Shown here: positions 10,219-50,200 of the stretch, one piece after another
Layout of the letters: each line of letters starts with the position of its first letter
Position numbering within the stretch: position 1 is the first letter of the stretch
From: a virus
Taxonomy: Duplodnaviria; Caudoviricetes
DNA: 64,000 nt
IMG/VR virus record: IMGVR_UViG_3300028482_000001
Coordinates: 1-64,000 of that record
Strand: one strand, 5' to 3'
Translations under genes and position numbers: made by a program
Notes under the pieces: generated by a model
What the model was told of the DNA's origin: nothing
Seen by the model: the letters and a program-made list of their open reading frames with translations, nothing else
The model's database searches: none

Positions 10219-10858
10219 AGTAAAATTTGTAATAAGAAAAGAAGTTCATGATGAGTTAGTGGAAAAGTTGAATTATAAACCTAAAATATATGTAATTTTT
10301 AATCATGAAGAAGATTTTGTATAAAAAGGATTTAATTCTGCTGTGCATCCGAGAGATGAAAAGGGAAGATTTACAGAAAAAGGAATAATGGAACTATCAG
10401 AAAAAGATAGAGAATTACTTTTAGATTATTTAGAAAAAGAAACTTATGAAGATTTTGAAGGTATAAAAGTTTCTGTTGGAAAAATAGATGCTGTAAGAGA
10501 AGGAAGATATAAAGATGAAGTAGAAACTTGTAAAAAAATAAAGATGTTAGGTTTTGATGTTTATTTATTAAGAGAAAGTTATTCTAATAACAAAAAGGCT
10601 GATATTTTTTATAAATTATTTAATGATAGAGATTTTATGGAAATAAAAAATACTGGGGAACATAAACTAATAACAAGATTTAATGAAACAAAAAAACAAG
10701 CTCCAAGTTGTTTCATTTCTATTAAGGATGAAATAACTTATAACAAGTATAAAAAATTGAAAGATGAAATAAAAAAAGATAATAGGAATGGGTATGTAAT
10801 TATTGAATACAAAGGCAAGTGTAAGGTTTTAAAACAAAAAAAACCCCCGCCCCGATAG
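10211..10858 (+). pseudogene. Putative head-cargo protein with CdiA-like PD-(D/E)xK nuclease domain, split by in-frame TAA at 10322
   Basis: MSKVKFVIRKEVHDELVEK...DFV*KGFNSAVHPRDEKGRF... in one frame; ADIF...FMEIKN nuclease-like motif; track ORF 10343-10858 is the 3' part. Confidence 0.6.
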
Positions 10859-11000
10859 AGGCACAGTTAAGTGCAATATCCGATCCTTCTAGGGAGTTTT
10901 AATAAAACGACCGGGAACTTTTAAGCTCCACCGGGGTTTGGTAATCCTACCTCTTCCTCGGTATACCCGAAAACATATTTTCATGGGAGCGACCCGACCT
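10836..11000 (-). ncRNA. Candidate antisense structured RNA (unit A)
   Basis: Minus-strand TTGACA(11035-11030)-17-TATTAT(11012-11007); several hairpins, AAACCCC/GGGGTTT closing stem, U8 tract. Confidence 0.6.
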
Positions 11001-11054
11001 AATAAGATAATATAGTAGATTAATTTTTTTGTCAATAAAAAAAAGGAGAAATAA

Positions 11055-11225
11055 ATGAAAGTAAAGATAACAGAAACTTTGGTAAAGATTGTAGAAGTTG
11101 ATGCAAAGGATGAAAAAGAAGCTTTGCAAGTTGTAGATAATTTATATCATGCAGCAGATGAAGATTTTATATTGTCTGCTGAAAACTTTGATTATGTAGA
11201 ATTTGAGGTGGTGAAGAATGACTGA
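11055..11225 (+). CDS. DpnD/PcfM-like small protein (missed by ORF track)
   Basis: MKVKITETLVKIVEVDAKDEKEALQVVDNLYHAADEDFILSAENF...; AGGAG RBS. Confidence 0.7.
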   Translation: MKVKITETLVKIVEVDAKDEKEALQVVDNLYHAADEDFILSAENFDYVEFEVVKND

Positions 11226-12015
11226 GTTATATAATGGTGATTGTTATGAATTTATAAAAAAGATTCCTGATAATTCGATTGATTTGGTCGTAACAGATCC
11301 TCCGTATTTACTTGAAACGCAAGGAGCAGGATTTTTTGGTAAAAAATCTGATGAGTATTCTATGAAATATAAAGGTAAAAAAGCATATACATGGGGAGGT
11401 GAACGCTATGTAATGAAAGAAATTGATTCCATGAAAAATGGATTTTCTGAATTATTATTAGATGAGATATGTCGAGTTATGAAAAAGATAAATTGTTATT
11501 TTTTTTGTAGTCAAAAACAAATACCTTTGTTGTTAGATTATTTTTTAAAGAAAAAAGGGTGTAATTGGAACATTTTAACTTGGCATAAAACGAATCCTAT
11601 CCCTGCTTGTGGAAATAAATACTTAACAGATACAGAATTTATTTTATTTTTTAGAGAAAAAGGGGTAAAAATACTTGGAAATTTTGATTCAAAATTTACT
11701 TATTATGTAACGCCTTCAAATATGGAGGATAAAAGAAAATTTGGTCATCTAACAATAAAACCTCTTAATATTGTGAAAAATTTGATAATTAATTCTTCAC
11801 AAGAGAACGATTTAATTTATGATCCATTTATGGGTTTAGGAACAACCGGGGTAGCATGTAAAGAATTAGGAAGAAATTTTATTGGTTGTGAAATTGACAA
11901 AAACTATTTTGAAATAGCAAAGAAAAGAATTCATTCTGTAGATACAGAAAATAAATTAATTCTGCAACAAGAAGAAAAAGTAGAAACACAAATAATTCAG
12001 GGTGAGTTATTTTAG
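11218..12015 (+). CDS. N4/N6 DNA methyltransferase (beta class)
   Basis: DPPY before DPFMGLGTT. Confidence 0.9.
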   Translation: MTELYNGDCYEFIKKIPDNSIDLVVTDPPYLLETQGAGFFGKKSDEYSMKYKGKKAYTWGGERYVMKEIDSMKNGFSELLLDEICRVMKKINCYFFCSQKQIPLLLDYFLKKKGCNWNILTWHKTNPIPACGNKYLTDTEFILFFREKGVKILGNFDSKFTYYVTPSNMEDKRKFGHLTIKPLNIVKNLIINSSQENDLIYDPFMGLGTTGVACKELGRNFIGCEIDKNYFEIAKKRIHSVDTENKLILQQEEKVETQIIQGELF

Positions 12016-12023
12016 GGGGAAAT

Positions 12024-12650
12024 ATGAAAATCTTAAAAAAAATTGGAATTTATGTAGCAGTATTTTTATTGATTATTGGAAGTGCTTTTATGTTAGGAAC
12101 ATATTATCAGGCACAAAAAACAAAAAAAATTGTATATGTTGATTTTATTTCAGAAGAAATTGAAACAGAACAAGAAAATATACATAAATATCAATTTCTG
12201 CCTGCTGAACTATCTGATTATATAGTGAGAATGTGTGAAGAATTGGAAATTGATTCTGATTTAGCTGTTGCAATTTTAATGCAAGAGAATCCTGAAATTA
12301 ATTTAGATGCTACTCATAGAAATGAAAACGGAACTGTTGATTTAGGGCTTTGGCAGTTAAATGACAAATATTTATATACAACTTTTACAAACAGTTTTTG
12401 GAAGTTTGAAGATATTGAATTAAATGCGTTTGATTGGAAGCATAATACTTTTATAGCTTTGCATCAAATAGAGTGGTTGCAAAGTAGATTAAAAGTTTTT
12501 GACGATGTTGTAATGGCTTATAACTGTGGTTATGGAGCTGTTATGAATAGAAAAATTCCAGATAGTACAAAAAAATATTTATGCAGTGTTAAAAATAATT
12601 ATAACTTACTAAAGGGGCAATATGATGCAGGAAACACAAAAGAAAATTAA
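12024..12650 (+). CDS. Membrane-anchored lytic transglycosylase (SLT domain)
   Basis: AILMQEN, DLGLWQLN, AYNCG motifs; N-terminal TM. Confidence 0.8.
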   Translation: MKILKKIGIYVAVFLLIIGSAFMLGTYYQAQKTKKIVYVDFISEEIETEQENIHKYQFLPAELSDYIVRMCEELEIDSDLAVAILMQENPEINLDATHRNENGTVDLGLWQLNDKYLYTTFTNSFWKFEDIELNAFDWKHNTFIALHQIEWLQSRLKVFDDVVMAYNCGYGAVMNRKIPDSTKKYLCSVKNNYNLLKGQYDAGNTKEN

Positions 12651-12915
12651 AGAAATTACAATGGCAATACAAGACTTGTTGCTATATAAAAATCAAAAAT
12701 ATGGTGATTCTGCATTGAATCCTAATAATATTTTTTATAAAGGGGATGCAACGAATTCTATTTTAATCAGACTTGACGATAAAATCGGAAGAATTAAATC
12801 TAATTCAGCAGAAAAACCAAGAGTAAACGATATTGCTGATATTATTGGGTATTGCACCCTTTTATTAATCAGTATGGGTGTAAGTGCAGAAGATATTGCA
12901 AAATTCAAGGATTAG
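12622..12915 (+). CDS. Nucleotide-modification-associated domain protein (DUF1599-like)
   Basis: KNQKYGDS...IRLDDKIGRI...DIIGY. Confidence 0.7.
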   Translation: MMQETQKKIKEITMAIQDLLLYKNQKYGDSALNPNNIFYKGDATNSILIRLDDKIGRIKSNSAEKPRVNDIADIIGYCTLLLISMGVSAEDIAKFKD

Positions 12916-12918
12916 TAT

Positions 12919-13269
12919 ATGGCAGTAACAATAATTAAACCTTATGCAACTTCTCCAAAAAGAAACTATTTAGAACATCATCGCAATCCTAGTGGCACAA
13001 TTAATAAAGCTAAATGGTTGTTATCAAAATCAAAGAAAGATATTAATAAACTTAATTCTCTTGTATGTTCGATTGAAGCAGGTTTACCTTTATCTTTTGA
13101 ACGAAAAAGTTGGCAGGCTGCTTTTTATATGGCTACTTACTGCATCATAAATGGAATCGAAAAAGTGGAAGAGCATTTTAATAAAAAGAATTATAAGAAT
13201 TACAAAACTAGAACATCAACATCTAGCAAAAATATTCCTTGGTTTGATTGTTTGTGTGGAGGAAAATAA
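12919..13269 (+). CDS. Hypothetical protein
   Basis: ORF in early operon. Confidence 0.45.
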   Translation: MAVTIIKPYATSPKRNYLEHHRNPSGTINKAKWLLSKSKKDINKLNSLVCSIEAGLPLSFERKSWQAAFYMATYCIINGIEKVEEHFNKKNYKNYKTRTSTSSKNIPWFDCLCGGK

Positions 13270-13526
13270 TGGAAGATGTTGAAATAGTCGTATTCAATGA
13301 TAAATCGTGGGTACGATTAACTGAATACCAAAAACTCGATGAAGAGAACAAGCAACTTGCCAAAAGAGTCTGTGAACTCCAATCTGATTTATCAAGAGCA
13401 AAAAGCCTGATTGAAAAAAAAATGATATGTTGCAGAAATTGTGAATATAGTTATAAAGAGAATGGCGAATTGCGATGTGATGTTATCAATTGTTTAAATT
13501 TTGATAAATGGAGGTTAACAGAATGA
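13248..13526 (+). CDS. Hypothetical protein with Cys-rich tail
   Basis: ORF in early operon. Confidence 0.45.
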   Translation: MFVWRKIMEDVEIVVFNDKSWVRLTEYQKLDEENKQLAKRVCELQSDLSRAKSLIEKKMICCRNCEYSYKENGELRCDVINCLNFDKWRLTE

Positions 13527-14143
13527 CAGATGTAGAATTAGAAAAGAAAGCAAAACTTTATGCAAACGAACATTATGACGACACAGATGAAAATGGATTT
13601 TGGTTTTCTGATATAGAGATGTTGCGTAGAGCATACATTGCAGGTGCAAAAGAAATGCAAGAAGAAAATCAACAATTAAAACAACAGTTGAAAAACGAAA
13701 AACAACTTAACGCAGAAATTAAAAAACGTCTTGTTGAAGTTGAATACGATTGTGAAGAGTTCACTCACGAATACTGTGATATAAATTGCAAAGGAAAAAG
13801 GAAAGAATTAGTTGATTTATACCAATTAATTTCAGATGGATTAAGCGAAACTTTACTAAAACAAAAAGAAGATGAGTTTGAAGAATTAAAAGAACACTGT
13901 GATGAACTTGAACTCATTAATCAAAAAGTGATGGAAGAAAATGAGCAATTAAAAGAGTATAACACAGACTTAAAACAGTCGTTAGATTGGGCTAATGAAA
14001 GAGAAACTGAATGGTCAAATAGAATTGAAGAGTTAAAAACAGATTTAGAATATGCAAAAGCGATTATTAAAGATTTGTTAAATAACTCACACGAATATTC
14101 AAGACAAAATGCAGAAGATTTTATAAAAGGAGAAAAGAAATGA
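13508..14143 (+). CDS. Hypothetical coiled-coil protein
   Basis: MTDVELEKKAK start resembles that of 45418-45855. Confidence 0.5.
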   Translation: MEVNRMTDVELEKKAKLYANEHYDDTDENGFWFSDIEMLRRAYIAGAKEMQEENQQLKQQLKNEKQLNAEIKKRLVEVEYDCEEFTHEYCDINCKGKRKELVDLYQLISDGLSETLLKQKEDEFEELKEHCDELELINQKVMEENEQLKEYNTDLKQSLDWANERETEWSNRIEELKTDLEYAKAIIKDLLNNSHEYSRQNAEDFIKGEKK

Positions 14144-14865
14144 AATTTGAATATACAGAAGTATCAGGGTTTTTGCCAGCTATTATCGGTATGAGATTAC
14201 CAATGAGTAAAAATTTCAAAGATGCAAAAACAAAAACAACTAGTGGTCCTTGTAAAAAGGTTTCTTGCGACAACTGTATTACTGCAAGTAAAACAAATAA
14301 CTGTAAAAATATTGAATCCAGTGATTTTCAGTTCACAAAAGAAGATTTGCGAGTTGCACAGAATTTAATAAAAGCAGATGGAAAAAGTTCTTGTGGAACA
14401 CCAAACTCTAAGTTTGTACAAATGATAGAAGTTTGGGTTAGTATTGAGGCTCCTTTAAGCTTCTGGAGCGAGTTTGACACTTATAGGCATATGGTTAAAA
14501 ACTCGACATCCAAAATGCACAAACTTCACTCTTATCCAATAGACGAAGATTGTTTTGAAAAAAATCCATTGACAGAAAAAGTATCGGATTTAGTAGACAT
14601 AGAAAAGTTAGAAAAACAACGACAAAAATATAATGAAACAAAAGATAAAAAAGATTGGTATGAACTAAACGATGCAATTCCTAGTAGTTGGTTACAAACA
14701 AGAATGTGTCATTTTAATTATCAGACATTAAGAAATATTATAATGTGGCGAAAAAATCATAAATTAAACTGTTGGTCAGGGAAAGATAATTCAGATATGG
14801 AATATTTCTTAAAATGGGCTAAAACACTCCCTTTTGCTGATGAATTGCTGTTTTATGAGGGGTGA
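14140..14865 (+). CDS. ThyX-related phage protein
   Basis: APLSFWSEFDTYR, NSTSKMHKL, WLQTR...NYQTLRNI..WRKNHKL. Confidence 0.55.
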   Translation: MKFEYTEVSGFLPAIIGMRLPMSKNFKDAKTKTTSGPCKKVSCDNCITASKTNNCKNIESSDFQFTKEDLRVAQNLIKADGKSSCGTPNSKFVQMIEVWVSIEAPLSFWSEFDTYRHMVKNSTSKMHKLHSYPIDEDCFEKNPLTEKVSDLVDIEKLEKQRQKYNETKDKKDWYELNDAIPSSWLQTRMCHFNYQTLRNIIMWRKNHKLNCWSGKDNSDMEYFLKWAKTLPFADELLFYEG

Positions 14866-14953
14866 AAATGATTTGTTGTAAATGTTCTTGGTGGGTACTG
14901 GAACAAGGTGAAAAGCTCTGTATAGAGTTAATAAATAAATAGGGAGGTGTAAA

Positions 14954-15283
14954 ATGGCAAAGGATGAAGTTGTTTTACCAAAATTAAAGGAAGAACTAAA
15001 GGATCTTTCAGTAAAAATCAAAAACTTGGCAAAGTTTTTGAACTCAGATGCAGAAGAAGCTCGTGATGCGTTATTGCATACACAGTGGCACGCAATGGTA
15101 ATTTACGAATATGCCTTAGCAGCTCGTGTCAATTCTTTGGAAGAAAAAATTGCAGCAAAGAAAAAGGTCGCGAAACCTACTAAAAAAGCAGCTAAAAAAA
15201 CTGAAAAATCCTTAAAAAAAGATGAAAAAGCAACTGAAAAAACTATAAACAGTTGTAACAAAGTTAAAGAAAAAGGGATGTAG
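14954..15283 (+). CDS. crAss001_48-like protein with Lys/Ala-rich tail
   Basis: EELKDL..KI..L..FL...LL..Q..AM..Y..AL..R pattern; AAKKKVAKPTKKAAKK tail. Confidence 0.55.
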   Translation: MAKDEVVLPKLKEELKDLSVKIKNLAKFLNSDAEEARDALLHTQWHAMVIYEYALAARVNSLEEKIAAKKKVAKPTKKAAKKTEKSLKKDEKATEKTINSCNKVKEKGM

Positions 15284-15292
15284 TTAAAAACA

Positions 15293-15916
15293 ATGGGCTT
15301 ACTTTTAGTAAGCCCAAAAGAGGTCCAAATGAGAGAATTTGATGAAAAAGAGTACAAAAAGAGAAGTTTTAAGAAAGCATTTAAAGTGCAAGATGAGTGG
15401 AAAACACCTTCGGTTCTTGTAAATATGATTGTTCCGTATCTTAAAAAGTGGGAATCGGATTTTATATTAAAAAATGGGCGCAAACCTATTTTGTGGTTGC
15501 CATTCGATACAGAAGAAAGTAAATACTACACAATTCTTAAAGCTAAGGGATTCCAGGTTGTAAGAAGTCATCTAAATGATGATAAAAACTTTTTTCATTA
15601 TCAGCCGGATCAGTTTGATATTATTGTTTCAAATCCACCATTTAGCTCAAAGTTAGATATTTTTAAACGTATTATTTTTGATTTACATGAGCCTTTTGTT
15701 TTGTTGATGAATATGATGGCGATAAATTACCAAGAAATTGGGAATTTATTTCAGTTTGTTGGGAAAGGCATTCAATTCATTATTCCAGATAAAAAGGTTT
15801 CTTTTAATGGTAAAACATCGAGCTTTTGCAGTGGATATGTTTGTTATGATTTTATTGATCATACAGAATTTGTTCATTTAGAAAATAATAATACAGGTAC
15901 GAATTTTAGGGAATGA
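15293..15916 (+). CDS. Phage N6-adenine DNA methyltransferase
   Basis: DEWKTP, WLPFDTEES, IVSNPPFS. Confidence 0.75.
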   Translation: MGLLLVSPKEVQMREFDEKEYKKRSFKKAFKVQDEWKTPSVLVNMIVPYLKKWESDFILKNGRKPILWLPFDTEESKYYTILKAKGFQVVRSHLNDDKNFFHYQPDQFDIIVSNPPFSSKLDIFKRIIFDLHEPFVLLMNMMAINYQEIGNLFQFVGKGIQFIIPDKKVSFNGKTSSFCSGYVCYDFIDHTEFVHLENNNTGTNFRE

Positions 15917-16273
15917 TTAATTATTTTCCCAAAACTCAATTTGTTGTAATAGATTAGACATAATTGCCTTTTTTTTATTTATGTCTAATTTGTTTATTCT
16001 TAATGCTATTTCTGACAAATCAATACATTTGTTGTCAATATAGATTTTTGGGTTAATTGCATTTTTCCCATATACCAAAAATTCTACAGATGTATTTAGT
16101 TTTGTGGCAATATCTACACAAAGTTTTCCATCAGGGAATATTCCTCGATATTTCCATCCTTTCATTGTAGGAATTGGAATATCACAATCTTTTGCAATTT
16201 GGTCTTTTGTAATGTTGTTTTGTGTTGCTAAAAGAGCAATTCTTTTCCAAAAATCTTTGGCAAGTAAATTCAT
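15917..16273 (-). CDS. XRE-family HTH repressor
   Basis: FWKRI...IPTMKGWKYRGIFP...IATKLNTSVEFLVYG. Confidence 0.8.
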   Translation of the reverse strand: MNLLAKDFWKRIALLATQNNITKDQIAKDCDIPIPTMKGWKYRGIFPDGKLCVDIATKLNTSVEFLVYGKNAINPKIYIDNKCIDLSEIALRINKLDINKKKAIMSNLLQQIEFWENN

Positions 16274-16361
16274 AGCATCTCCTGTTGTTTATATTATCGA
16301 CGTTTAATAAAAAAAAACAATACTTTGTAATTATAAAAGTATGAAAAATAATATTTTTTTC

Positions 16362-16421: not shown

Positions 16422-16493
16422 CGCGGCGTAGGGAAATGGCATCCCTCAGGAATCATAATCCTGCTGTTGTAGGTTCGAGTCCTACCGCCGCAA
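16422..16493 (+). tRNA. tRNA-Met(CAT), initiator-like acceptor stem, CCA not encoded
   Basis: Cloverleaf: C1:A72 mismatch with GCGGCG/CGCCGC; D stem GGGA/TCCC; anticodon stem CAGGA/TCCTG with loop ATCATAA; T arm GTAGG-TTCGAGT-CCTAC. Confidence 0.9.
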
Positions 16494-19269: not shown

Positions 19270-19278
19270 TAAAATCTC

Positions 19279-34556: not shown

Positions 34557-35186
34557 ATGGTAAAATTGGTTATCAAGAAATCTGCTTATGTAGAGCTTTT
34601 AAAATCTTTTGGAGTGAAATACAAATATAAAAAACTCATAAATGGAAAATGGAGATATTACTATGCGGATGATAGGGAAATATCTGTTAGATGGCATGAA
34701 CACAATGCAACAAAACAAGAATTAAGAACTTTTATACACGATACAATAACTAATCCAAATTATGATGAAAATATTAAATTGTGTGATATACCTAGTCATT
34801 TTTCAAACAAACTTAAACTAAAATTAGGGATAAATATAGACAGTTTAACAATGGGAAGTTCTGAATTAAGACATTCGTTAAATCTAAGAAAACATAATAT
34901 ATCATCGGAAGATATTTTATTATTCAGACGAACAATACAAAATAAACATACAATTATTCGTTATGAAGGTACTTCAAGAAGAAGAAAAACTAATTTGATA
35001 AAATTTAAAGGATATTCAAGAGGTACTATTTATTTTATAGCTAGTTATAATAAATACGGAGAATTAAAACTGTTTGATTGTTATAGGGAAGGCAAAATAG
35101 AAAAATCTGTGAGACTTCCATGTACATGCCCGGAAGCTAACGCCCTTGACGATTCACAGCCTATACTTATAGTAACGCTTTTATAA
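34557..35186 (+). CDS. Putative head-cargo protein with PBECR-like RNase domain
   Basis: N-terminal MVKLVIKKS tag; ELRHSL..RKH..SSED pattern; family call tentative. Confidence 0.5.
   Translation: MVKLVIKKSAYVELLKSFGVKYKYKKLINGKWRYYYADDREISVRWHEHNATKQELRTFIHDTITNPNYDENIKLCDIPSHFSNKLKLKLGINIDSLTMGSSELRHSLNLRKHNISSEDILLFRRTIQNKHTIIRYEGTSRRRKTNLIKFKGYSRGTIYFIASYNKYGELKLFDCYREGKIEKSVRLPCTCPEANALDDSQPILIVTLL
35097..35162 (-). ncRNA. Candidate antisense structured RNA (unit B)
   Basis: Minus-strand TTGACA(35197-35192)-17-TACTAT(35174-35169); CTGTGA/TCACAG and GCTTCC/GGAAGT stems, then T-rich tail. Confidence 0.55.
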
Positions 35187-35391
35187 AAAATTGTCAAATA
35201 AAATGTTTTATAAATACGAAGACGTATTTATGAGAGAGTAAAGGTATAGGAATTTCCTACACCTTTGATGGGGTCTCTATTATCCACCCCATAATTATAG
35301 ACAATTATTGTGGTTGACGGTATCGGAATTTGCGAGGTCGTGATTATTGATACAAAGGGGGTATCTGTTCGTTACCTCCTGTTATACGATT

Positions 35392-37310: not shown

Positions 37311-37487
37311 AAACTAACTTAAAGGAAGGTAAATATGGAAACAATTAAAAGCTTTATTAAGTACTTGAAATTGTCAAAAAAGTATAAGGATGCAATAAGA
37401 AAAGTGATAGATAGTTTTTATGATGAATACAAATTGAAAAACTAACACTTGAAACAATTATAAACATGTAATAAAATTAATATGAAC

Positions 37488-37546
37488 GATGTGTCAAAAA
37501 GACAGTCATTTATCTTTCATGGGATAAGTGGCTGTCTTTTTTTTTT
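37488..37546 (+). promoter_or_regulatory. Late-gene leader terminator, copy 1
   Basis: GATGTG box then AAGACAGTCATTTATC/GATAAGTGGCTGTCTT and T run, between promoter (TTGAAA 37449) and portal. Confidence 0.75.
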
Positions 37547-39613: not shown

Positions 39614-42600
39614 ATGGGAAAACTAGTAATTAAAAAATCTGTTGCAAATCAAATAACAAGCAAATTAAAAACTCATAAAAATGATGATATAACGCCCGAA
39701 TTTGCAGAAAATCTGCAAAAATCGGACTTATTTTCTGAAAATAAGCAAGTTTCAGTCAAATTACAGTCAAATAAAAATATAGGTGTAACTCCTGATGATT
39801 GTTATTATGATTTAGATAATCCCACAGAGAAATTTTATTATGATTTGAAAATGAAATTTGCTCAGAGTGATAAAGCAGATGATATTGAGAAATCACATAA
39901 ATATATAAGACGATGGAAAATGAATAATGGTGAATGGAGATATGAATATCCAAAAGGGGTTGATAAAAAAATACATTCATTTAGAGATGTAACAACAGCT
40001 CTAACAAATAAGACAACAGAAATAAAAGATATTCAACCATTAACAACAGAAAAACAGATTGATGCAGAGCTTGAAAGATTAACAAAACTTTCAGAAGAAG
40101 GAAAACTTACTTGTCCGGCTTTAGGAAATGCAAATATTTACATTGAAGATATGACTACAGAACATGCAGAAAAAACAAACGGTGTATTTAGAACAAAGGA
40201 AGCTAAAATTCATAAGTTACAATATCTTTCTTTTGTTGAAGATGTTCTTAAAAATGGTATTCTATTTATGAAATCACGTAAATACAATCATGCTTGGTCA
40301 TTAGATAAGATTTCAGAAAGAGAAAGAACTACTTATGGAATTATTAACAAGGTTACATATTTTGACAAAAAGAAAAATAAAAACATAACATGTGGAATGG
40401 AAATTGTTGTTGCGTGGGATAATGAAAGAAAAAGGTTTGTGTTTTCATTTATTGATAGACAAATAAAAAAATCCTTGTTATTTAACAAGGATTTTCAAAC
40501 GACCACTTTCGAGGCGGGTCAGGTAGGTGCTTGTAAAACAGAGGCTTTTTCTACCACCGACTCTATAATACCACATTTGATAAATTTGTCAAGTAGAAAT
40601 GTAAATAAATCCCTTACTTATTCTGGTTATAAATTACAAGGTAGAACTAGACTTTATGGCATGGATATTTCCATTGAAAATAAAAAAGGAAGTTATAGAT
40701 GTGGTGTAGATTCAGATGGTCATAAGTGGGAAATTTTAATGCACTATGATTATGGATATATTAGGGGAACTGTAGGAGTAGACAAAGATCACTTAGATTG
40801 TGTAAGCCCAGAAACAAAAATCTTAATGGCTGATTATACTGAAAAAAGTGCTGCAGATATAAAAGAAGGCGACGAACTTATTGGAATTAAATTAGAAACA
40901 CAACAGCATAAGCAGCGAAAACAGATTAAAACTAAAGTTATTCATGTCAAAAAAGGTATGGATGATATGCTAGATATTACTCTTGAAAATGGTGTAAAAC
41001 TGAGAACTACTAAAGGTCATTTACATTATTATTTTCAAGGTAAGACAAGAGATAAGTATTGGAAGCGTGCTGATGAATTAAAAATTGGTGATAAACTTGT
41101 AATGATTTACAATCATCATAATTTTGAAGAAACAGAAGATTATAAAAAGGGTTATCTCTTTGGAGCTTATATCGGCGATGGATGTTATAATTTTGATGAA
41201 TCAAAACAGGTTTATTGTGATATTAGAAAAGGCGTTGCTTTTATTGATGTTATACATAGAGTAAAACAATATTGGAATGATTTAGGTTTAGAAACATCTA
41301 AGATAAGAATAGACAAACCTAGACAGACAAATTCTTTATTAGCAGATGGTAGAAAAGTTATATCTAAAATGGATTTAGCTATATTATCTATTAGAGGTAT
41401 AAACAAAATAAGATATATTAAATCAATTCTTGTAAAAAATCCTAAATCTTTTGAATGGTGTCGTGGTTATATCGCTGGTTTATTTGATACAGATGGATGC
41501 TTGAATTGTAGACATGAATTCCTGATAACTCAAACCAAAAATCAAGATGAATTTATGAAATTTACAATTGAATGTATTAATAAATTGGGTTATCAAGCAG
41601 TAAAAAGATACAATGAAATTAAATTACATACAGATTATATGGCTGATAATATAACAATGGAGTTTACTCAAATTATTAAGCCAGCTCTTGAAAAGAAAAG
41701 AAACTTTTTAGGCCAAACTTATAGATATGAGCCATTGGAAATTGTGGATATAAAGCCATATACCGGGGAGTTTGTTGCTATTCAGACTGATGAACAGACA
41801 TATATTGCAAATGGACTTGTAACACATAATTGCTATGTTGGACCAGATAAAAACACAAAAAAAGTTTATGTAATTCATCAAAACAATCCTATTACTCATA
41901 AATACGATGAAGATAAATGTATGTTGTGTTTTGAAAGTGCAGATGCAGCCAAAAAAGCATATATGAAACAATATGATAGACCAGGATTTTTTGGAAGTAT
42001 GGAAACATTAACTGTAGAACAATTCAAAACTTTTGTATTTTCAAAACAAGGTAGTAGAATACACAAATCCTTTGATATTGAAATAACTGATATTACTGAA
42101 AATAATAAGCAAAGAAAAGTTGAGCAAGTAGAAAAGGCATTAAACGCTATTTATAATAACAAACCTTTTGTAATTGAGCATATTTCAAAAAAATTAGATT
42201 TCTCAAGAAAATATAATGATATTTTAATGAGAATTACTGATTTTGATAAAAACAAAATTGAAAAAGCTGTACATTCATTGGCATTTACATTAGATACTAA
42301 AGTTAAGGCAAGTAAAGGAGAGGCCTTTGTATATGCCAGTCAGGAAGATTTAACAAATCAGATTGTTAATGAAATTACTGAAAAAACAAAAAAGATTTAT
42401 AATTTCGTAATTTCATTTTTTGACTTACCTGAAATTACTATCGTAAGAAAAGCAAATTTAATTCATAAAGGGAAAATAATATACAATCCTGAAACAGGAG
42501 AACCTGTGAAAAAAGCAGAGTGGGATAAATTTGTAGAAGAATTAGAAAAAATGCTTAATAAAAATTATATGGGGTATGGTGAAAAAATAGTTTTAAAAGG

Positions 42601-43261
42601 TGAAACGTTAGGACTGATTTTAGATCGTCTTGCAAAAACTAATTCTTTTGAAGCAATTCAGAAGAAAAAACTTTCGGACATTGTATATAAACGAAAACAT
42701 TTTGATTGGATTTCGGATGATATAAAAAATTTAAAAACTATTATTGGTGAACCTATATCAAGGGAACGGGCAGCAAGAATTGAAGTTGCGATGCAGAGTG
42801 TAGGGCAAAGAATATCAAGGGTAAAAGATTCTCTTAAAAATGAAATCCAGCAAGTTATTATTGACGGAATTAAAAACAAAGAATCGAAGAGAGTTGTTTC
42901 TCAAAATTTGTTTGATAAGTGTGTAGGACTTAATCGAGATTTTCAAAAAATTGCAGATAGTGAAATCCAAAATACAGTTAATAATGCATATATCAAAGAA
43001 GAAGTTTTTAATTCAGACGAAAATGAAAAAATCTATTTTAAAAGGTTTGAAGTGATAGATGATAACACTTGTTCAAAATGTAAAAAAATAAAAGGGAAAC
43101 TTGCACTTTATAGCAAAGTTCCTTTGGATGATGAACATATCAAGGATGAGTATGCTGATTATGCAATATGGGAAGGTAAAGTAGATGGAGATTTGCCTAT
43201 GGGGATATTGCATCCTTATTGTCGTGGATCGTGGGTTAGGTATTATCCGGAGGTTGATTGA
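39614..43261 (+). CDS. Polyvalent MuF-type head protein: nuclease-like domain, inorganic-pyrophosphatase-like domain split by an intein, C-terminal MuF domain
   Basis: DYGYIRGT.G.D.DHLD|CYVGP..DEDKCML; C-terminal TCSKC...LHPYCRGSW. Confidence 0.75.
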   Translation: MGKLVIKKSVANQITSKLKTHKNDDITPEFAENLQKSDLFSENKQVSVKLQSNKNIGVTPDDCYYDLDNPTEKFYYDLKMKFAQSDKADDIEKSHKYIRRWKMNNGEWRYEYPKGVDKKIHSFRDVTTALTNKTTEIKDIQPLTTEKQIDAELERLTKLSEEGKLTCPALGNANIYIEDMTTEHAEKTNGVFRTKEAKIHKLQYLSFVEDVLKNGILFMKSRKYNHAWSLDKISERERTTYGIINKVTYFDKKKNKNITCGMEIVVAWDNERKRFVFSFIDRQIKKSLLFNKDFQTTTFEAGQVGACKTEAFSTTDSIIPHLINLSSRNVNKSLTYSGYKLQGRTRLYGMDISIENKKGSYRCGVDSDGHKWEILMHYDYGYIRGTVGVDKDHLDCVSPETKILMADYTEKSAADIKEGDELIGIKLETQQHKQRKQIKTKVIHVKKGMDDMLDITLENGVKLRTTKGHLHYYFQGKTRDKYWKRADELKIGDKLVMIYNHHNFEETEDYKKGYLFGAYIGDGCYNFDESKQVYCDIRKGVAFIDVIHRVKQYWNDLGLETSKIRIDKPRQTNSLLADGRKVISKMDLAILSIRGINKIRYIKSILVKNPKSFEWCRGYIAGLFDTDGCLNCRHEFLITQTKNQDEFMKFTIECINKLGYQAVKRYNEIKLHTDYMADNITMEFTQIIKPALEKKRNFLGQTYRYEPLEIVDIKPYTGEFVAIQTDEQTYIANGLVTHNCYVGPDKNTKKVYVIHQNNPITHKYDEDKCMLCFESADAAKKAYMKQYDRPGFFGSMETLTVEQFKTFVFSKQGSRIHKSFDIEITDITENNKQRKVEQVEKALNAIYNNKPFVIEHISKKLDFSRKYNDILMRITDFDKNKIEKAVHSLAFTLDTKVKASKGEAFVYASQEDLTNQIVNEITEKTKKIYNFVISFFDLPEITIVRKANLIHKGKIIYNPETGEPVKKAEWDKFVEELEKMLNKNYMGYGEKIVLKGETLGLILDRLAKTNSFEAIQKKKLSDIVYKRKHFDWISDDIKNLKTIIGEPISRERAARIEVAMQSVGQRISRVKDSLKNEIQQVIIDGIKNKESKRVVSQNLFDKCVGLNRDFQKIADSEIQNTVNNAYIKEEVFNSDENEKIYFKRFEVIDDNTCSKCKKIKGKLALYSKVPLDDEHIKDEYADYAIWEGKVDGDLPMGILHPYCRGSWVRYYPEVD
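40463..40560 (-). ncRNA. Candidate antisense structured RNA (unit C), inside ORF
   Basis: Minus-strand TTGACA(40592-40587)-16-TATTAT(40570-40565) with upstream TG; ends in AAAATCCTTGTT/AACAAGGATTTT hairpin and U tract. Confidence 0.6.
40799..41830 (+). mobile_element. Intein with LAGLIDADG homing endonuclease (344 aa)
   Basis: Starts CVSPET, ends VTHN followed by Cys; GAYIGDG and AGLFDTDG motifs. Confidence 0.9.
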
Positions 43262-43472
43262 GTATTAAATTTAAAACTTTATCTATTGACAAGTCGTAAA
43301 TTTTATATTATAGTTTGATTATTAGTATTAATTTTAATACTAGTTGTTTTAAATAAAGAGTTGCGTATTTGTTTAAGACTATTACTAACCTATTATCTTT
43401 TTTCAACGCAACCCTAGATGACTAGGTGAAAAAAGGTGATAGGTTTTTTATTTTAAAGGAGTAAGGTAAGGT

Positions 43473-44290: not shown

Positions 44291-44294
44291 AAGA

Positions 44295-44549
44295 ATGATT
44301 TGCGAAAAATGTCGTTATTGTTACGAGTTAGACCAGTCTAATGAAAGTAATGGGAAAGATATAATCCAATATTGCAAACACGGATTAGGCAATGCTTATG
44401 TTAACGGATATTGCGATTATCCTTTTGTTTTTATTCCAATAGTAATTTTATATTCTAAAATACGCAGATTTTTTTATAATAAAAGCATAAAAAAACATTT
44501 AGAGTATTATAAATTATTTGAGTCCATTATAAAGGATGTAGCAGAATGA
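44295..44549 (+). CDS. Hypothetical protein
   Basis: ORF track, Cys pairs. Confidence 0.4.
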   Translation: MICEKCRYCYELDQSNESNGKDIIQYCKHGLGNAYVNGYCDYPFVFIPIVILYSKIRRFFYNKSIKKHLEYYKLFESIIKDVAE

Positions 44550-44905
44550 AAACTTGTAAAGTTTGTGGTGCTATTTTTTCTCCAAGAGATTACAGGCAAA
44601 CAATCTGTTCTGATGAATGCAGAAAAGTTGCCAACAAAAAAAGATGTGCTTTATATCGACAAACTCATACACCAATTAAAAATAAATGTGTTTTGTGTGG
44701 AGCAGTAACAAAAGGATTTATTTGTATGGGGTCGGAATGTAGAAAAATTTACCATCAAGTTTATTCGTGGACGCAAAACAGAATGAAATATGATATTAGA
44801 GCAAGTGGAAAAAAATATATAAATCCACTTGAAAAAATCCAAGCGATAAAAGAAAAGTATAAAAACGGAGTTTCTGTTGAGATAATTAAACAAATGATGG
44901 AGTAA
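44546..44905 (+). CDS. Zn-ribbon hypothetical protein
   Basis: CKVC...CSDEC...CVLC. Confidence 0.5.
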   Translation: MKTCKVCGAIFSPRDYRQTICSDECRKVANKKRCALYRQTHTPIKNKCVLCGAVTKGFICMGSECRKIYHQVYSWTQNRMKYDIRASGKKYINPLEKIQAIKEKYKNGVSVEIIKQMME

Positions 44906-45008
44906 AAAAAATGACAAAAGAAGAAAACGAAAAACTTATTGAAAGTGATTGTTACAAATTGATTAAGGCTTTAGTTGATTTGTTGATTGCGTTGAAAAGA
45001 TTTGATAA

Positions 45009-45398
45009 ATGGGAGAAAACAAAATGAAATACGTACAAGACACAAAAGAAAAATCAATTTTTATAAAGTTTTATGAAAATGACCCACTTGGATTCTGCAA
45101 TCATAGAACCATAGATACAGAAGAAGCAAAAGAAAAATTACGTAAATTAAAACGAAAAATAGATTGCATTGAACGAGCGATAAATCTAGTAGAAATAAAT
45201 AATACAAATGATTTGTGGAGCAGATACAAAAGAGGTGAACTTCCTGCAATTCATGATTCTGGAGATATTGTAAAAGACGCTTTTCAAGACGCTTTGAATA
45301 TTCAAGCTAATAGAATTCTTGGTAATTTGCAAAAACATTTTACAAATATGACAGAAGAAGAAATTGAAAATATAATTTTTCCTGATAATCGAGAATAA
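45009..45398 (+). CDS. Hypothetical protein
   Basis: ORF track. Confidence 0.4.
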   Translation: MGENKMKYVQDTKEKSIFIKFYENDPLGFCNHRTIDTEEAKEKLRKLKRKIDCIERAINLVEINNTNDLWSRYKRGELPAIHDSGDIVKDAFQDALNIQANRILGNLQKHFTNMTEEEIENIIFPDNRE

Positions 45399-45417
45399 TT
45401 AAAAAGGAGGTAAAAGA

Positions 45418-45855
45418 ATGACAGATAAAGAATTAGAAAAGAAAGCAAAAGAATATGCAAATAAAACACAGTTCACAGAATATGATAATCCGTCTTTGTC
45501 CGAAAGTTTAGATATTTCCGAAGATATAAAACAAGCATATATCGATGGTGGAAAAGAAAATCAACCTACTGTAGAAGAAATGCTCAAACGATTGATAAAA
45601 GGTGGATATGTTAAATCGGGTATTTATGAGAAAAAAGAACACTCTCAACAATGGCACATCGTTACTAACGGAGATTTGCCGAAAGAGAAAAAAGAATATT
45701 GGTGTAAAGTATTTTATTATGAATCAGAAGAAACATTTAATGCTTTCTTATGGTTTGACCCTAGCACGAAAGAGTTTAAGTTTTTGGAAAATATAGGGGA
45801 AGATGAAGTGAGCGGATTTAAAGTTAAAGAATGGCGTGAGATACCAGAGGAGTAA
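45418..45855 (+). CDS. Hypothetical protein
   Basis: GGAGG RBS; QWHIVTNGDLP motif. Confidence 0.5.
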   Translation: MTDKELEKKAKEYANKTQFTEYDNPSLSESLDISEDIKQAYIDGGKENQPTVEEMLKRLIKGGYVKSGIYEKKEHSQQWHIVTNGDLPKEKKEYWCKVFYYESEETFNAFLWFDPSTKEFKFLENIGEDEVSGFKVKEWREIPEE

Positions 45856-45858
45856 ATT

Positions 45859-46332
45859 ATGAATATCACAACCTTAACAGAAAAATATTTTGAAAAAGTT
45901 AAATCAGATGATAAATCAACAACTCTATTTAAGGATTTATTCAAATCTGGAGCTTATGCAGTTTTGAAAGAAATTAATAGACTTAACTTTCCAGCATTTA
46001 CTTTGATTGATGATAATGATTTGTCTAAGCAAGGTTTTGTCAATATGCTTTTGAATAAAATGGTTGGTGAAGATGACTCTGATTTTGTTGATAGCTGTTT
46101 GCACTTCATAGAATATAAGGCATATCATGAAGGTGAGCCCTCTATAAAAAGATTATATGAAAATGATGATAAAAATTGGTTATTAGTTCAATTAGATGAT
46201 GGAAGATTCGATATTGCCAAAAATGTTTGGGTCGATGATAAGAAAGAATCTTCGGTTTGGAAAAATCAAGATGGAAAAGTTTTGGATAATGTATTAAACT
46301 GGAGACCAATTTATCCAAATGGTGAAGTGTAA
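45859..46332 (+). CDS. Hypothetical protein
   Basis: ORF track, coupled. Confidence 0.45.
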   Translation: MNITTLTEKYFEKVKSDDKSTTLFKDLFKSGAYAVLKEINRLNFPAFTLIDDNDLSKQGFVNMLLNKMVGEDDSDFVDSCLHFIEYKAYHEGEPSIKRLYENDDKNWLLVQLDDGRFDIAKNVWVDDKKESSVWKNQDGKVLDNVLNWRPIYPNGEV

Positions 46333-46413
46333 AATAGGAGTAAACTATGTTTTTGATACTTAAAACGATTGACTGAAAAGACGAAGATTACATCAAGGGT
46401 AATATAATCCCTT

Positions 46414-46674
46414 TTGGTTGGTGCGGAGTTCGGCTATAACAAGGCTAATGAATGGCATTATGTAAAAGATGGATGTTTACCGAAAGAAACAGATTTTCTT
46501 ATGAGTAAAACACTTCTTTTAGTAACAAAAATGAAAGGCTCTGATTGCTTATTTCTTGTACTTGGGCAATACAATTTTTCGACACAAGAGTTTAGTTATC
46601 AACACATGGTTGGACTGACAGATGTTATCGCTTGGAAAGCGATTGTATCACCAAAGGAGACTGAACGAAAATGA
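46414..46674 (+). CDS. Hypothetical protein, possibly 5'-truncated
   Basis: EFGYNKANEWHYVKDG motif, no clear RBS. Confidence 0.35.
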   Translation: MVGAEFGYNKANEWHYVKDGCLPKETDFLMSKTLLLVTKMKGSDCLFLVLGQYNFSTQEFSYQHMVGLTDVIAWKAIVSPKETERK

Positions 46675-46998
46675 CTCAGAAAGTTAAATCGGCTTTAATT
46701 AAAGCAAATAAGGCAGAAGAACGACTTTTCAAAGCAGAAAGTGAATTATTTCTAGAGTGTCAAGAACTTTGTAACTACCCTTTAGAATTCTGTCAGTATC
46801 AACCTAGCGATGGGTTTTGTAAGGAATACGCATCGAATTAAATTGTGCACACTTTTCTCCAAATAAAGATGCTTTCAAAATGCTAATAAAAGAAAACGGG
46901 GATGTTGAAATTTTAGGATTGAATGAGGAGAGTAATTATGACAAAAAAAAGAAAAAATAATAGAAATAGTTTACATTATAACAACTTTATGGTATAAG

Positions 46999-47199
46999 TT
47001 GTTACGCAAAAAAGAAGGATTTTTTATGAAGAAATTTATGTTTTTTTTAAGTTGTATTATTGGAATTGTTTGCGTTATTGGGGCATCAGTTGTTAAATTT
47101 GGGCTGAATTATAATATCAGTGATGTGTTTTTAATAATAAGTTATTTTTTGTGTCTTTTACCGATAGGAATATATGTTTTTGTTATTGAAAACAAATGA
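46999..47199 (+). CDS. Small two-TM membrane protein
   Basis: Two hydrophobic segments. Confidence 0.45.
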   Translation: MLRKKEGFFMKKFMFFLSCIIGIVCVIGASVVKFGLNYNISDVFLIISYFLCLLPIGIYVFVIENK

Positions 47200-47222
47200 A
47201 AAAAAATGTAATATATTATTAG

Positions 47223-47275
47223 GATGTGTCTTAAAGGCAGTCATGATGTTTAGTCGTGGCTGCCTTTTTTGTTTT
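47223..47275 (+). promoter_or_regulatory. Late-gene leader terminator, copy 2
   Basis: GATGTG...AAGGCAGTCATGA/TCGTGGCTGCCTT TTTTGTTTT. Confidence 0.8.
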
Positions 47276-47291
47276 AAGCTTAGAATAAAGG

Positions 47292-50200
47292 ATGGGAAAA
47301 ATGGCAAAGATTATTGTTAATTTGAATGAATTAAAAGGATTTTCTTTTTATCGTAATTACATAGAAAAGGCGAAAAAGGGTGAAATGGTTGGTGGTAAAT
47401 ACATGTATAGGGAAGAAGTTCCTGAAAAAGTAAAAACAAGTAAAGGGAAAACTACCGTAATTAGATATAAATATTATTATTTGACAGATATGCTTAAAGA
47501 TAGTGCAGAAAAACTTCTTGAAAATATCGGTAAATTCTTTTTCAAGGGAAATGAAAAGGAAGTAAAAAAAATTGAAAATTCCTATAAAACTCAAAACATA
47601 GAAAAAGATTATGGAGCAGATAAAAAGACGTGGTATCAGCATTGTATGGAATATTTGAGCCACAAAGCAAAATGGGATAAAAGATTTTCAAATAAAGATA
47701 ATGCTGAAAAGTTTAAAACACCTATCAAACAAAAAGTCGTAGAAAAAGTTGATATTCCCGGAATGGAAACAGCAGCAGTAGAAACTCCAGAAATTAAAAC
47801 ATCAATTGAAACAGAGAAAAAAGAGGCAACCTGGAAACCCAACCCATCTTTAATGCGTAAAGTTTGGAGTTTATACAATGGTGTAGAATCTGTTAATAGC
47901 GGAGTTAGCGTTGGTGATACTGTAAATTTTAATGGGCGAAAAGGAACTGTAACAAAAAAAGTAAATGACAATATGGTTATGGTAAGTTTTGAAGATGGAG
48001 GTTTAGGCAGATTCTTTGCAAAAGACTTAAACAAAGTTGAAATTTCAAATGAAAGTGTAACAAATGAAGCTGATGTAAATGGTAAAATACAAGAAGTTGT
48101 AACAGGGCTAAATACTTCTAATGATACAGTTGAAGAAACAACGGATGGACAAGGTAATAAAATTGCAATGTTAGGTAACCAGAATGCAAAAAAGAATTTC
48201 GTTGACTTTATTGATAAGTTTATTACAAATGGTTATAAATCTGATAAGGTTGTAAATCTTTTAGATACAACACCTTTAATTTTGCAAGAACATGGTATTC
48301 CAAATAATCCTATAAGTATAACACCTTCTGTTTTGAAAAAGATTTTAGAAAATGATTTAAATGTTTATCATGGTCATAATATTTCTGTTGATATTTTAAA
48401 GGATCTACCTAATCAACTTGAAAATCCTGTTTATATACTGAAAGGTAAGGATGGGAAAAAGATTATTGTTACAGAATACTATGTAGAAAATAGACCTATA
48501 ATTACAATTCTTGAAATAGATAGAAAAGAAGGTCGTACAAATGTAAATTCTGTAAGAAGTTTATATGATAAACAGAATACTGTATTTATGGAATGGATAA
48601 AAGATGATTCCATAGTTGAATATGAAAATAAAGAAAAAAGTAAGGTGCTATTACAGTCCATAGGTAACCAATATACCAAGGAGGTAACAACACCTTACAT
48701 AAATAATAATACCACAAATATAGAAAATGTCAATAGTGAACATGGGAATTCTATAGCCATGCTTGGTAATGATAATGCTAAGAAAGATTTTGTTGATGTA
48801 AAACAAGGTTTTTCTGAAATGGATAAAAAACTTCTTGCTTTAGCATTGTACAAAGAAAAAGAATTTAATCCAACAATGAATGATTATTATTATTATGAAA
48901 AATTAAGATATAAATATCCTAATTTAGCTTCTAAAGGTAGTATTTATTCAATTATGGAAGAATTAAAAGGAATAGATGTTAAAAATATAAACCTTGATGA
49001 AGTAAAAGAGTATGTAGAAAAGATTAAAGGTGGGGGTGATGAACCGCCAAAGAATGATGCAAAAAAGAATTTCGTTGACGGATTGTCGCTTGATACAGAG
49101 TTAATTGCAAATGCAAATAATTCTTCATATATGTATGAAGCTGGAGATGCTATTAATCGTGAATATCTTGGCGGAATTGAGGCTATCAATTCATGGGATT
49201 TGACAGATGAAGAAAAACAGAAAGCTAAACAAAAACTTTTTGAACTTACAACGGAACAGTTAAAAGCCCAGGCAAAGGCTATATCTGTAACAGTCGCAGG
49301 ACCAGCTAGGAAAGTAAGTGGAAGTGATACAGCATTTGATAAAGTTCAGAAAATCCGTGGGAAAATTAAAGAACTTCTTGATACAATAAGAGCTAAAAAT
49401 AATACAAATGTTCAGAAACAGGAAATGAAAGATTTTACAACAGCAGCAACAGAGGCCATGAATAATAATAAACTTGCTTTTGTGTATGATGGTAAAGTTT
49501 ATTATCGTGGTAATATAAAATCAAGCTCTTGGAGTGAAATAAATCATATTCCAGAAGTTGATGAAACAAAGACTGTTGATGAAAAGAAAAAAGAGTTGAA
49601 GAAACTCAAAGAAGAAAGTAAGAATCTCGGTTTTGCTAATCCAGAGAACACAAAAACCCTTGATAGAATTGAAAAACTTAAAAATGAAATTGCATATATG
49701 AATACTGATGAATGGCAGAATCGACATAATGCCATGCTCGGTAATCAAAACGCAGCAAAACCATTTTCAGAAGAAGAAACAAAAAAAGAACAAAAGAAAG
49801 TAAAGGAAACAAGAGAAAAAGCAGGACTACCTAAAATAGGAATAAATTATGGGGAGAGAGTTTCTGCTATGGAAGATTCAGTTTCTCTTAATCCTAATGC
49901 GGAAAACTATGCTTATAAAGATACAGGTTATATTGCAGGTTCTCAAAAAGAAAAGATTCAAGACTTTTGGAAAATAAAAAAGGAAAGTGGTGAAGGAACA
50001 AGTATAGAAGAAATAGATTGGAATACACTTGAAGAAAATCCTAGATATGCAGAACAACAAATTACAAAATCAAATATTCTTGGAAATATTGATTATAATT
50101 CATTCAAAGAAAAAGGAATGGATTCTAGGGCAGCGTATTTAGCAAGTAGAGTATTTGCCGCAATTCCAAAAGAACCTACAGGTCATGATGTTACTGCTCG

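Follow-up and report, generated by a model that had tools for sequence, protein, structure and literature searches.

Type I toxin-antitoxin systems such as txpA/RatA and bsrG/SR4 of Bacillus subtilis consist of two convergent RNAs that overlap at their 3′ ends, and lambda OOP and P22 sar are short cis-antisense RNAs of phages. Four loci that recall both are present in the first 64 kb of the virus record IMGVR_UViG_3300028482_000001, an 80,555-bp sequence with direct terminal repeats; this stretch of 64,000 nucleotides is referred to here as the window. At each locus a domain of nuclease type is joined at its 3′ edge by a small RNA gene on the opposite strand (units 1 to 4), and comparison with homologous loci strongly supports the view that each of these domains has an antisense RNA gene of its own, embedded in or abutting its coding sequence, which is conserved together with the cognate domain family.

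OOP and sar resemble these units in that a promoter and a terminator delimit a short RNA which covers the 3′ end of a phage gene in antisense orientation. They are, however, single regulators of lysis and lysogeny, whereas the units described here fall into four unrelated RNA families, lie beside toxin-type domains and are also present outside phages. With type I systems, which are often prophage-borne, the units have in common, as far as sequence can tell, a small RNA that is transcribed from its own promoter towards the toxin gene and overlaps the 3′ end of the latter. The usual type I toxin is small, hydrophobic and shorter than approximately 60 aa, whereas the domains here are enzyme-like and of 170–210 aa, two of them lying within proteins of 1215 and 1644 aa; SymE/SymR (PMC1891008) and RalR/RalA are known exceptions to this small-toxin rule, being type I pairs whose toxins are nucleases, as is proposed here. 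Further differences are that two of the RNA genes are in frame within an open reading frame (ORF), with the free-standing loci overlapping by the terminator only, and that the RNA bodies are conserved structured modules, beyond mere complements of the message. The type III systems ToxIN, CptIN and TenpIN share with the units a structured RNA, which here too would neutralise an RNA-cutting toxin in the place of a protein antitoxin, and an RNA type that is matched to the toxin family. They differ in that the RNAs here are single, convergent and under a sigma-70 promoter of their own, with no toxin-processed tandem repeats upstream on the same strand. No ToxN was among the fold matches listed for the domains of units 1 and 3 (families 1 and 3), the best of these being CdiA-CT and restriction-endonuclease-like (REase) folds, together with weak BECR matches.

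The protein side of the arrangement is the same as that of the MuF polymorphic toxins of temperate phages (Jamet et al., 2017; PMC5576092) and of the polyvalent proteins with PBECR, MuF_C and LPD domains (Iyer et al., 2017; PMC5512222), where predicted RNase or nuclease domains are carried by virion proteins that are polyvalent or linked to MuF. The term ‘antisense’ is absent from both papers, ‘noncoding’ and ‘sRNA’ are absent where they were searched for, and the only match to ‘small RNA’ is the title of a reference. Among the papers covered by a wider literature search there was no earlier description of a nuclease domain with an embedded antisense RNA, in agreement with the initial annotation of this DNA, which had been made from the sequence alone and knew of no such description.

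Antisense RNA units of the window

The initial annotation had placed a minus-strand promoter at the 3′ edge of each of four candidate nuclease domains, firing back into a hairpin RNA with a terminal U tract, and all four promoters were found at these places. A search with the pattern TTGACA-N16/17-TAYTAT gave four exact matches in the window, each of them on the minus strand, where shuffled sequences lead one to expect 0.14 and where four were reached in 0 of 100 shuffles. Each unit consists of a predicted sigma-70-type promoter of its own, a folded RNA of 60–165 nt and an intrinsic terminator, on the strand opposite to the phage genes.

Unit 1, which is largely intergenic, has its promoter at 11007–11035 (minus strand; TTGACA, a 17-nt spacer and TATTAT), with a promoter at the same place in homologous loci. 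Its RNA of approximately 165 nt (10836–11000, minus strand) is made up of two modules, A (10908–11000) and then C on the 3′ side, and ends in a U tract that covers the final codons of the gene. The promoter of unit 2 (35169–35197, minus strand; TTGACA, a 17-nt spacer and TACTAT) spans the stop codon of its gene and has its −35 element kept in the homologous locus L084; the RNA (35098–35162, minus strand, approximately 65 nt) is a hairpin followed by a U tract and occupies the last 30 or so codons of the 209-aa gene 34557–35186, which reads through it in the sense direction. Units 3 and 4 lie entirely within the ORFs of two polyvalent proteins and are read through in frame. The unit 3 promoter (40565–40592, minus strand) and the unit 4 promoter (48706–48733, minus strand) both have TTGACA, a 16-nt spacer and TATTAT with an extended −10 element (TGGTATTAT), and that of unit 3 is kept in the distantly related phage G001 and in the loci L048 and L049. 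The unit 3 RNA (40464–40558, minus strand) has three helices in approximately 95 nt, one of them the 13-bp terminator hairpin at about 40468–40497, and in the sense direction it is a 46-codon in-frame linker; the unit 4 RNA (48625–48699, minus strand, approximately 70 nt) is a long hairpin followed by a U tract. In every one of the four units the domain ends in codons that overlap the U tract, the sense strand reading ...KQKKPPPR*, ...IKKS and ...NKEKSK, and such Lys-rich sense-frame ends over the U tracts (IKKS, KEKSK and LKIK* being examples) have the promoter some 90–200 nt further downstream.

A detector requiring a promoter, then 30–260 nt and then a hairpin with a U run recovered the four units, whose hairpins range from −14 to −27 kcal/mol, and no further minus-strand unit of comparable quality in the window. 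The absence of a unit after the non-nuclease effectors, as initially reported, was thereby upheld. Outside the window, at genome positions 66408–66436 (minus strand; 1501–1529 of L005), the promoter pattern has a fifth exact match, which lacks a hairpin, covers the start codon of the next gene together with its ribosome-binding site and is probably due to chance.

Two properties ascribed to the RNAs in the initial annotation held for three units each. The RNAs had been called GC-richer than their surroundings, and GC islands are present at 10842–11003, 35086–35180 and 40486–40579, that is at units 1, 2 and 3, with unit 4 below threshold. The stems had also been said to contain G-U wobbles that pair on the minus strand only; in units 1, 2 and 4 it is indeed the minus strand that folds more stably (unit 4: −27.9 kcal/mol, z −5.9, against −19.6 for the plus strand), but in unit 3 it folds less stably (−21.6 against −24.1). 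Among 21 RNAs, the antisense strand was the more stable in 18, by a mean of 6 kcal/mol (Wilcoxon p = 4e-4, uncontrolled for base composition), which fits a functional minus-strand RNA whether it were to act by antisense pairing or by protein binding. Taken as single sequences, units 1 and 2 are no more stable than their shuffles (z −1.5 and +0.5), and it is conservation that supports them.

No unit was matched by the Rfam covariance models, the sole gathering-score match in the window being a tRNA, and relaxing the threshold gave nothing meaningful, either around units 1 and 2 (E up to 10) or in five homologous loci (E up to 0.5). The possibility that the RNAs are genes for small proteins was discarded, as no conserved ORF was seen on reading the aligned module A sequences by eye.

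Predicted nature of the four domains

Pfam and PHROGs gave nothing for three of the four domains, including the product of 34557–35186 and the N-terminal domain of 39614–43261, and pairwise BLASTP among the four gave no similarity beyond short cargo motifs (KLVIKKS, NG.WRY.Y). The remaining one, residues 359–451 (48366–48644, plus strand) of the 1644-aa product of 47292–52226, is a MuF_C (PBECR) domain (Pfam PF18819; E = 2.8e-18, 66.4 bits against a cut-off of 27.6).

The family 1 gene at unit 1 (10343–10858, plus strand) encodes 171 aa, and its AlphaFold model (predicted local distance difference test, pLDDT, of 85) is suggestive of a PD-(D/E)xK-like fold. Its top Foldseek match is CdiA-CT Bp1026b of B. 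pseudomallei 1026b (4g6v_A; E = 0.02, probability 0.96, template modelling (TM) score 0.42/0.52), followed by the Holliday-junction resolvases Hjc and RecU and by restriction enzymes, all of them weak and every E-value being above 0.001. The motif GFDVYLL.E...KAD is common to 14 family 1 homologues, with D, E and K invariant. The model weakly points to an REase fold which resembles CdiA-CT and is unlike BECR. The gene starts with GTG (10211–10345 region), and the 98%-identical protein of a sister phage is 44 residues longer at its N-terminus, including the cargo-type motif KLVIRKS; 10343–10858 may be truncated N-terminally or its start may be miscalled.

The free-standing gene at unit 2 (34557–35186, plus strand, 209 aa) lies near the PBECR3, PBECR2 and MuF_C clusters in the Atlas (score 0.89, TM 0.5–0.6), which serves as a lead only to a PBECR-like domain. 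The family 3 domain at unit 3 (39878–40483, plus strand) is the N-terminal part of the 1215-aa protein 39614–43261 and ends in ...FIDRQIKKS. Its AlphaFold model (pLDDT 80) gave VIA-align Z-scores of 3.9 for CdiA-CT Kp342, 3.1 for BrnT and 2.3–2.8 for RelE, ParE and colicins D and E5, with NTF2-like folds scoring equal to the BECR proteins, and Foldseek against the PDB gave no clear fold; a BECR-like fold is weakly suggested.

The nuclease identity claimed in the initial annotation is secure for MuF_C, is at the level of a lead or weak for the others, and calls for correction at unit 1, where the predicted fold is REase and not BECR. There is thus good reason to label one domain as ‘nuclease-type’; the label is likely to apply to two others and is plausible in the case of the fourth. 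Many of the cargo and toxin proteins, among them 34557–35186 and 39614–43261, open with M.KLVIKKS, followed by ...NG.WRY.Y.

Conservation of units 1 and 2

The unit 1 protein has 14 homologues, and the downstream DNA was readable in 24 family 1 loci representing 13 distinct sequences, with one locus ending 68 nt past the stop codon. A convergent RNA is present 3′ of the stop codon in all 13, with a strict-pattern promoter in 10. These loci are found in the sister phage, in gut and rumen prophages where they adjoin CI-type repressors, in a Treponema chromosome and in islands with PIN, BrnT and Fic. Their RNAs are assembled from modules, the sets being A only, B only, A+B, A+C (this phage) and another module with C (the sister phage), and module C is common to unit 1, L022 and L036. 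Family 1 proteins among these loci are 43–98% identical; where they are 43–60% identical, modules A and B are 85–95% identical and have compensatory pairs, with module A being kept in six distinct loci with covarying pairs. In four gut metagenome contigs (L025–L028), the family 1 gene and its RNA are approximately 1.4 kb from an Abi_2 gene and adjoin small helix-turn-helix genes, surroundings which may be a defence or immunity island.

Six homologues of the unit 2 protein were identified, the best-conserved part of which is the C-terminal tail, that is, the RNA gene read in the sense direction. One locus was available as DNA (L084), and here the RNA is approximately 93% identical over about 70 nt with a protein that is 59% identical, one stem pair having changed in a compensatory manner from C-G to U-A. 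Searching with the unit 2 alignment gave no locus in viral contigs and one in metagenomes.

Covariation and the displaced copy of unit 3

An exhaustive search of 1.84 billion representative proteins returned 22 homologues of the family 3 domain. In their alignment the domain ends at IKKS, encoded by the sense strand of the U tract and of the stem base; some homologues stop after it and many continue into the translated RNA gene. The RNA gene and its promoter were confirmed in the DNA of four of these homologues, including L048, L049 and L050, with L048 having two tandem copies which each have their own promoter. The unit 3 RNA follows homologues of 31–78% identity, and more distant homologues, of 32–33% identity, have a different RNA in the same layout.

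Covariation was examined in an alignment of six sequences, including G001, both copies of L048, L049 and L050. With a three-helix model, 94% of cells pair and 8 pairs have changes on both sides against 3.3 in shuffles, and the covariation score is reached by 0 of 500 shuffles; controls with slid partners pair at 30–53%. A pairing of GGYGG with CCGCC proposed by RNAalifold is invariant and was not adopted, the three-helix model being tested in its place.

Phage G001 (80,202 bp) is a distant relative with core genes 64–72% identical at the DNA level, and the unit 3 RNA gene, at 81%, is the best-conserved stretch between both genomes. It is not syntenic, lying in G001 at the start of a 300-aa ORF without a nuclease-like domain, and this orphan shows that the pairing of domain and RNA is not absolute. 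A direct repeat flanks unit 3 in the window (40456–40474 to the left and 40594–40612 to the right, plus strand, 138 nt or 46 codons apart), and the orphan is flanked by a 40-nt direct repeat that is 88% identical, the copies being 177 nt apart; a duplicated ...LLKIPE.R.IKKS brackets it in G001. Recombination at A-rich strings of the IKKS type is suggested by these repeats.

Such features could also be expected of a selfish or structural cassette, a mobile or recombination-prone insert or a shuffling linker whose promoter arose by accident from A/T-rich ends, which would explain why direct repeats flank unit 3 in both phages and why the RNA gene is non-syntenic and better conserved than the core genes. 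This explanation is nevertheless very improbable, as there are no multiple near-identical copies within one genome, the four RNA types are unrelated and each is faithful to one domain family, and compensatory changes maintain the RNA helices.

Searches for further copies were largely negative. With blastn, no unit other than unit 3 had a match in G001, and the strict unit 3 DNA pattern occurred in viral contigs in G001 only. The unit 3 peptide, searched against longer proteins, matched only the window's own protein, scans of viral contigs with the unit 3 and unit 4 regions as single proteins gave one locus each, and four phages with a 58%-identical portal protein have no such units in the 15–19 kb around the portal gene. 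Phage G001 also has, at 35166–35376 on the minus strand (L015), two tandem intergenic units resembling small RNA genes, each with a promoter, an RNA of approximately 90–135 nt and a terminator; they have related closing stems (TTAATACCTG...) and no homology to the four units of the window.

Units at MuF_C domains

The initial annotation had called for a test of whether antisense promoters are enriched at the ends of nuclease domains, and MuF_C, as a Pfam family, allows it. A search of 201 Treponemataceae genomes for MuF_C provided the sample, which consisted of the best 30 loci (96.9 kb in total). By the detector these loci contain 29 units, all antisense to the MuF_C frame and none sense. In 17 of the 30 loci the terminator of a unit ends −13 to +27 nt from the end of the Pfam domain, with the promoter 89–256 nt downstream (89–137 nt in 16 of the 17), and extra units follow LPD3 domains or a second MuF_C domain. 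The ends of Phage_Mu_F domains from the same genomes, taken through the same procedure, gave 0 of 30 (Fisher p = 6e-7), so that the proposed enrichment was borne out. The few units in the control loci lie 650–800 nt downstream of Phage_Mu_F and in four loci fall exactly at the stop codon that closes the MuF C-terminal tail, the tails themselves having sub-threshold matches to PBECR3 or CdiA_C.

Each of the MuF_C RNAs is a long hairpin (−18 to −36 kcal/mol); the stems differ, and the apical loop, AAUUG(K)A, is common to them. All five pairs of the apical stem change on both sides in 1–8 of 15 sequences (7 or 8 for four of the pairs). Outside the spirochaetes, the Pasteurella phage Pmp11 has a promoter, a hairpin with the loop AAUUGGA and a U tract after its MuF_C domain. 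Shigella phage POCJ13 (L082) and Escherichia phage Stx2 II (L083) encode MuF_C with the peptide GLQLP and have neither the promoter nor the long hairpin. Since domain and peptide are here present without a unit, the RNA gene is not a by-product of coding. In the giant polyvalent proteins of Stx-type short-tailed phages, MuF_C is followed by a conserved RGLQLPK, the Pfam model stopping approximately 20 residues before it.

It is on these data that coincidence is best judged, that is, the explanation in which Lys-rich protein ends and A/T-rich DNA mimic promoters and terminators. The 30% G+C of the genome, the failure of units 1 and 2 to fold singly better than shuffles and the apparently accidental promoter match at 66408–66436 are all in its favour. 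It is strongly disfavoured all the same, and we regard it as scarcely credible, because it leaves unexplained the excess of pattern matches on a single strand, the 29 antisense against no sense units in Treponema loci with their preferred position (p = 6e-7), the covariation of the helices and the E. coli phage homologues that have the same peptide motif without a unit.

Possible functions of the RNAs

Each RNA type was found to travel with its own domain family across phages, prophages and bacterial chromosomes. The settings of the pairs include polyvalent virion proteins, MuF C-termini, free-standing two-gene cassettes in Treponema chromosomes, the immunity regions of prophages and toxin-antitoxin islands, while side by side in this one phage there are four RNA families, two of them in frame within polyvalent genes as linkers between domains. 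The proposal of the initial annotation, that the RNAs keep virion-delivered RNases harmless in a lysogen, is too narrow, as the same pairs stand alone in Treponema chromosomes and in toxin-antitoxin islands. Protection against MuF toxins is reportedly ascribed to protein immunity genes, and the RNA appears to occupy the place where such a gene would otherwise be expected.

The account that we favour, and would give an even chance of being right, is that the RNA is the antidote of the adjoining domain, most likely through cis-antisense action of the type I kind, keeping the nuclease harmless in a cell which carries or makes the domain. A strong constitutive promoter would maintain a steady level of the RNA in the lysogen, and the 3′ edge of the toxin-coding segment would be the part of the sense transcript with which it pairs. 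Cleavage of the duplex, 3′-to-5′ decay and collisions between converging polymerases could then eliminate the toxin message or cut it short. Where the unit is embedded, as in the two polyvalent genes, the RNA would over its entire length be complementary to the message. In the lytic burst the RNA would be overwhelmed by the sheer volume of late transcription. Antisense action is favoured because of the orientation of the RNAs, their full complementarity when embedded, the plain hairpins of the MuF_C units and the precedent of 3′ overlap in type I systems.

The RNA could otherwise be an ordinary antisense regulator and no antidote, with the RNA itself or its converging promoter tuning the timing or amount of the virion cargo proteins, or silencing late read-through in the lysogen, in the way of OOP and sar. 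Short cis-antisense RNAs are generally known in phages, the plus-strand promoter-leader-terminator units in the late operons of this phage (see below) speak for elaborate transcription control, and the unit 3 RNA of G001 is at the 5′ end of a different gene of cargo type. Against this, the pairs also occur in bacterial chromosomes and toxin-antitoxin islands, far from late operons, and the units mark toxin-type domains (MuF_C, LPD3 and families 1 to 3) and not Phage_Mu_F, nor do they follow the inorganic pyrophosphatase (InPase), LPD1 or other cargo domains in the window. Regulation of this ordinary sort is on balance improbable.

The main rival to the antisense antidote is an RNA of the type III kind, which would fold, bind and block the nuclease domain, possibly as a mimic of its substrate, with the antisense orientation being incidental. 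It owes this rank to the strong conservation of the RNA bodies outside the ORF, which it explains better, and we consider it rather unlikely but deserving of attention. Conservation of the RNAs exceeds both the needs of pairing and that of the proteins (modules A and B 85–95% against 43–60%; unit 2 approximately 93% against 59%), the ORF of free-standing loci does not include the conserved body, there is one domain family per RNA type, and the orphan RNA of G001 would make sense as immunity to the effector of a relative. On the other hand, the MuF_C RNAs are plain long hairpins with freely variable stems, as is typical of antisense RNAs and not of aptamers, modules are swapped between near-identical family 1 proteins, toxin-processed tandem repeats and a same-strand upstream RNA are lacking, and no ToxN is among the fold matches listed.

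To return to the antidote acting by antisense, a number of observations weigh against it. The promoters and terminators are predictions, as is the nuclease activity of all four domains, with the fold of the family 3 domain in particular being weakly assigned, the alignments are small, and the thresholds of the detector were fixed after the window had been seen. By its criteria 13 of the 30 MuF_C domains have no unit, and the 17 positive loci represent about five related RNA subgroups and not 17 independent events. The unit as a universal feature of MuF_C is ruled out by the two Stx-type phages, and the conserved AAUUG loop had to be set aside as evidence at the level of RNA, as it coincides with a conserved peptide, G-x-Q-[LFY]-P, which it probably reflects. 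The swapping of modules among family 1 loci is odd and would not be expected of a strictly specific antidote: proteins that are 98% identical have different 5′ modules (A in G000, another in L022), and homologues of about 50% identity carry A only, B only or both. Lastly, in the free-standing family 1 loci the conserved RNA body is located past the stop codon, with only the terminator overlapping the ORF. A toxin mRNA that terminated at the shared hairpin would allow little duplex formation, and protein binding would fit these loci better than antisense pairing.

The strong conservation of RNA bodies outside the coding region also suggests a possible second layer to the antidote, in which the RNA would bind the protein directly. 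A broader form of the same idea, which we put forward tentatively and with more doubt than belief, would be a cross-phylum class of RNA immunity against delivered or polymorphic nuclease toxins, in which portable cassettes, each a toxin domain with a small RNA gene abutting it or lying in frame within its ORF, provide an RNA that both pairs with the message and binds the domain, and orphans such as that of G001 protect a phage or its host against the injected effector of a relative.

Phage and genomic context

From 7.2 kb on, the genes of the window are nearly throughout on the plus strand, and they encode the terminase, the portal protein and the two polyvalent virion proteins. Of the latter, 39614–43261 has by Pfam a weak MuF match and an InPase domain (residues ~339–740) which is split by an intein bearing a LAGLIDADG-like endonuclease, and 47292–52226 has LPD1 in addition to MuF_C. 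The host of the phage is probably a Treponema of gut or rumen, since homologues of one phage gene occur in rumen and gut genomes of Treponema and Spirochaetaceae. A tRNA-Met (CAT) at 16422–16493 on the plus strand is the sole Rfam and ARAGORN match in the window.

The plus strand has units of another kind, in which sigma-70-like promoters are followed within 50–130 nt by strong terminator hairpins (−15 to −29 kcal/mol). The detector located these leaders at 37449–37544, 43286–43451, 53426–53514 and 58272–58363 of the window and at 65510–65610 and 78425–78531 of the genome. They precede the portal gene and other late operons and look like leader terminators requiring an antiterminator.

Implications for phage-borne nuclease toxins

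How the producing cell survives the predicted RNases and nucleases of phage polyvalent and MuF proteins is largely unexplained, protein immunity genes often being missing, and an RNA at the edge of the domain would fill this gap. If the antidote function holds true, large enzyme toxins of the BECR and REase folds would join the short list of toxins that are controlled by RNA, and it would be seen that a complete RNA gene, with promoter, structured RNA and terminator, can be kept in frame as a linker between protein domains. By the signature of promoter, hairpin and U tract, toxin-type domains and their limits can be recognised in phage genes that lack annotation, and the pairs of domain and RNA are small enough for direct tests in E. 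coli.

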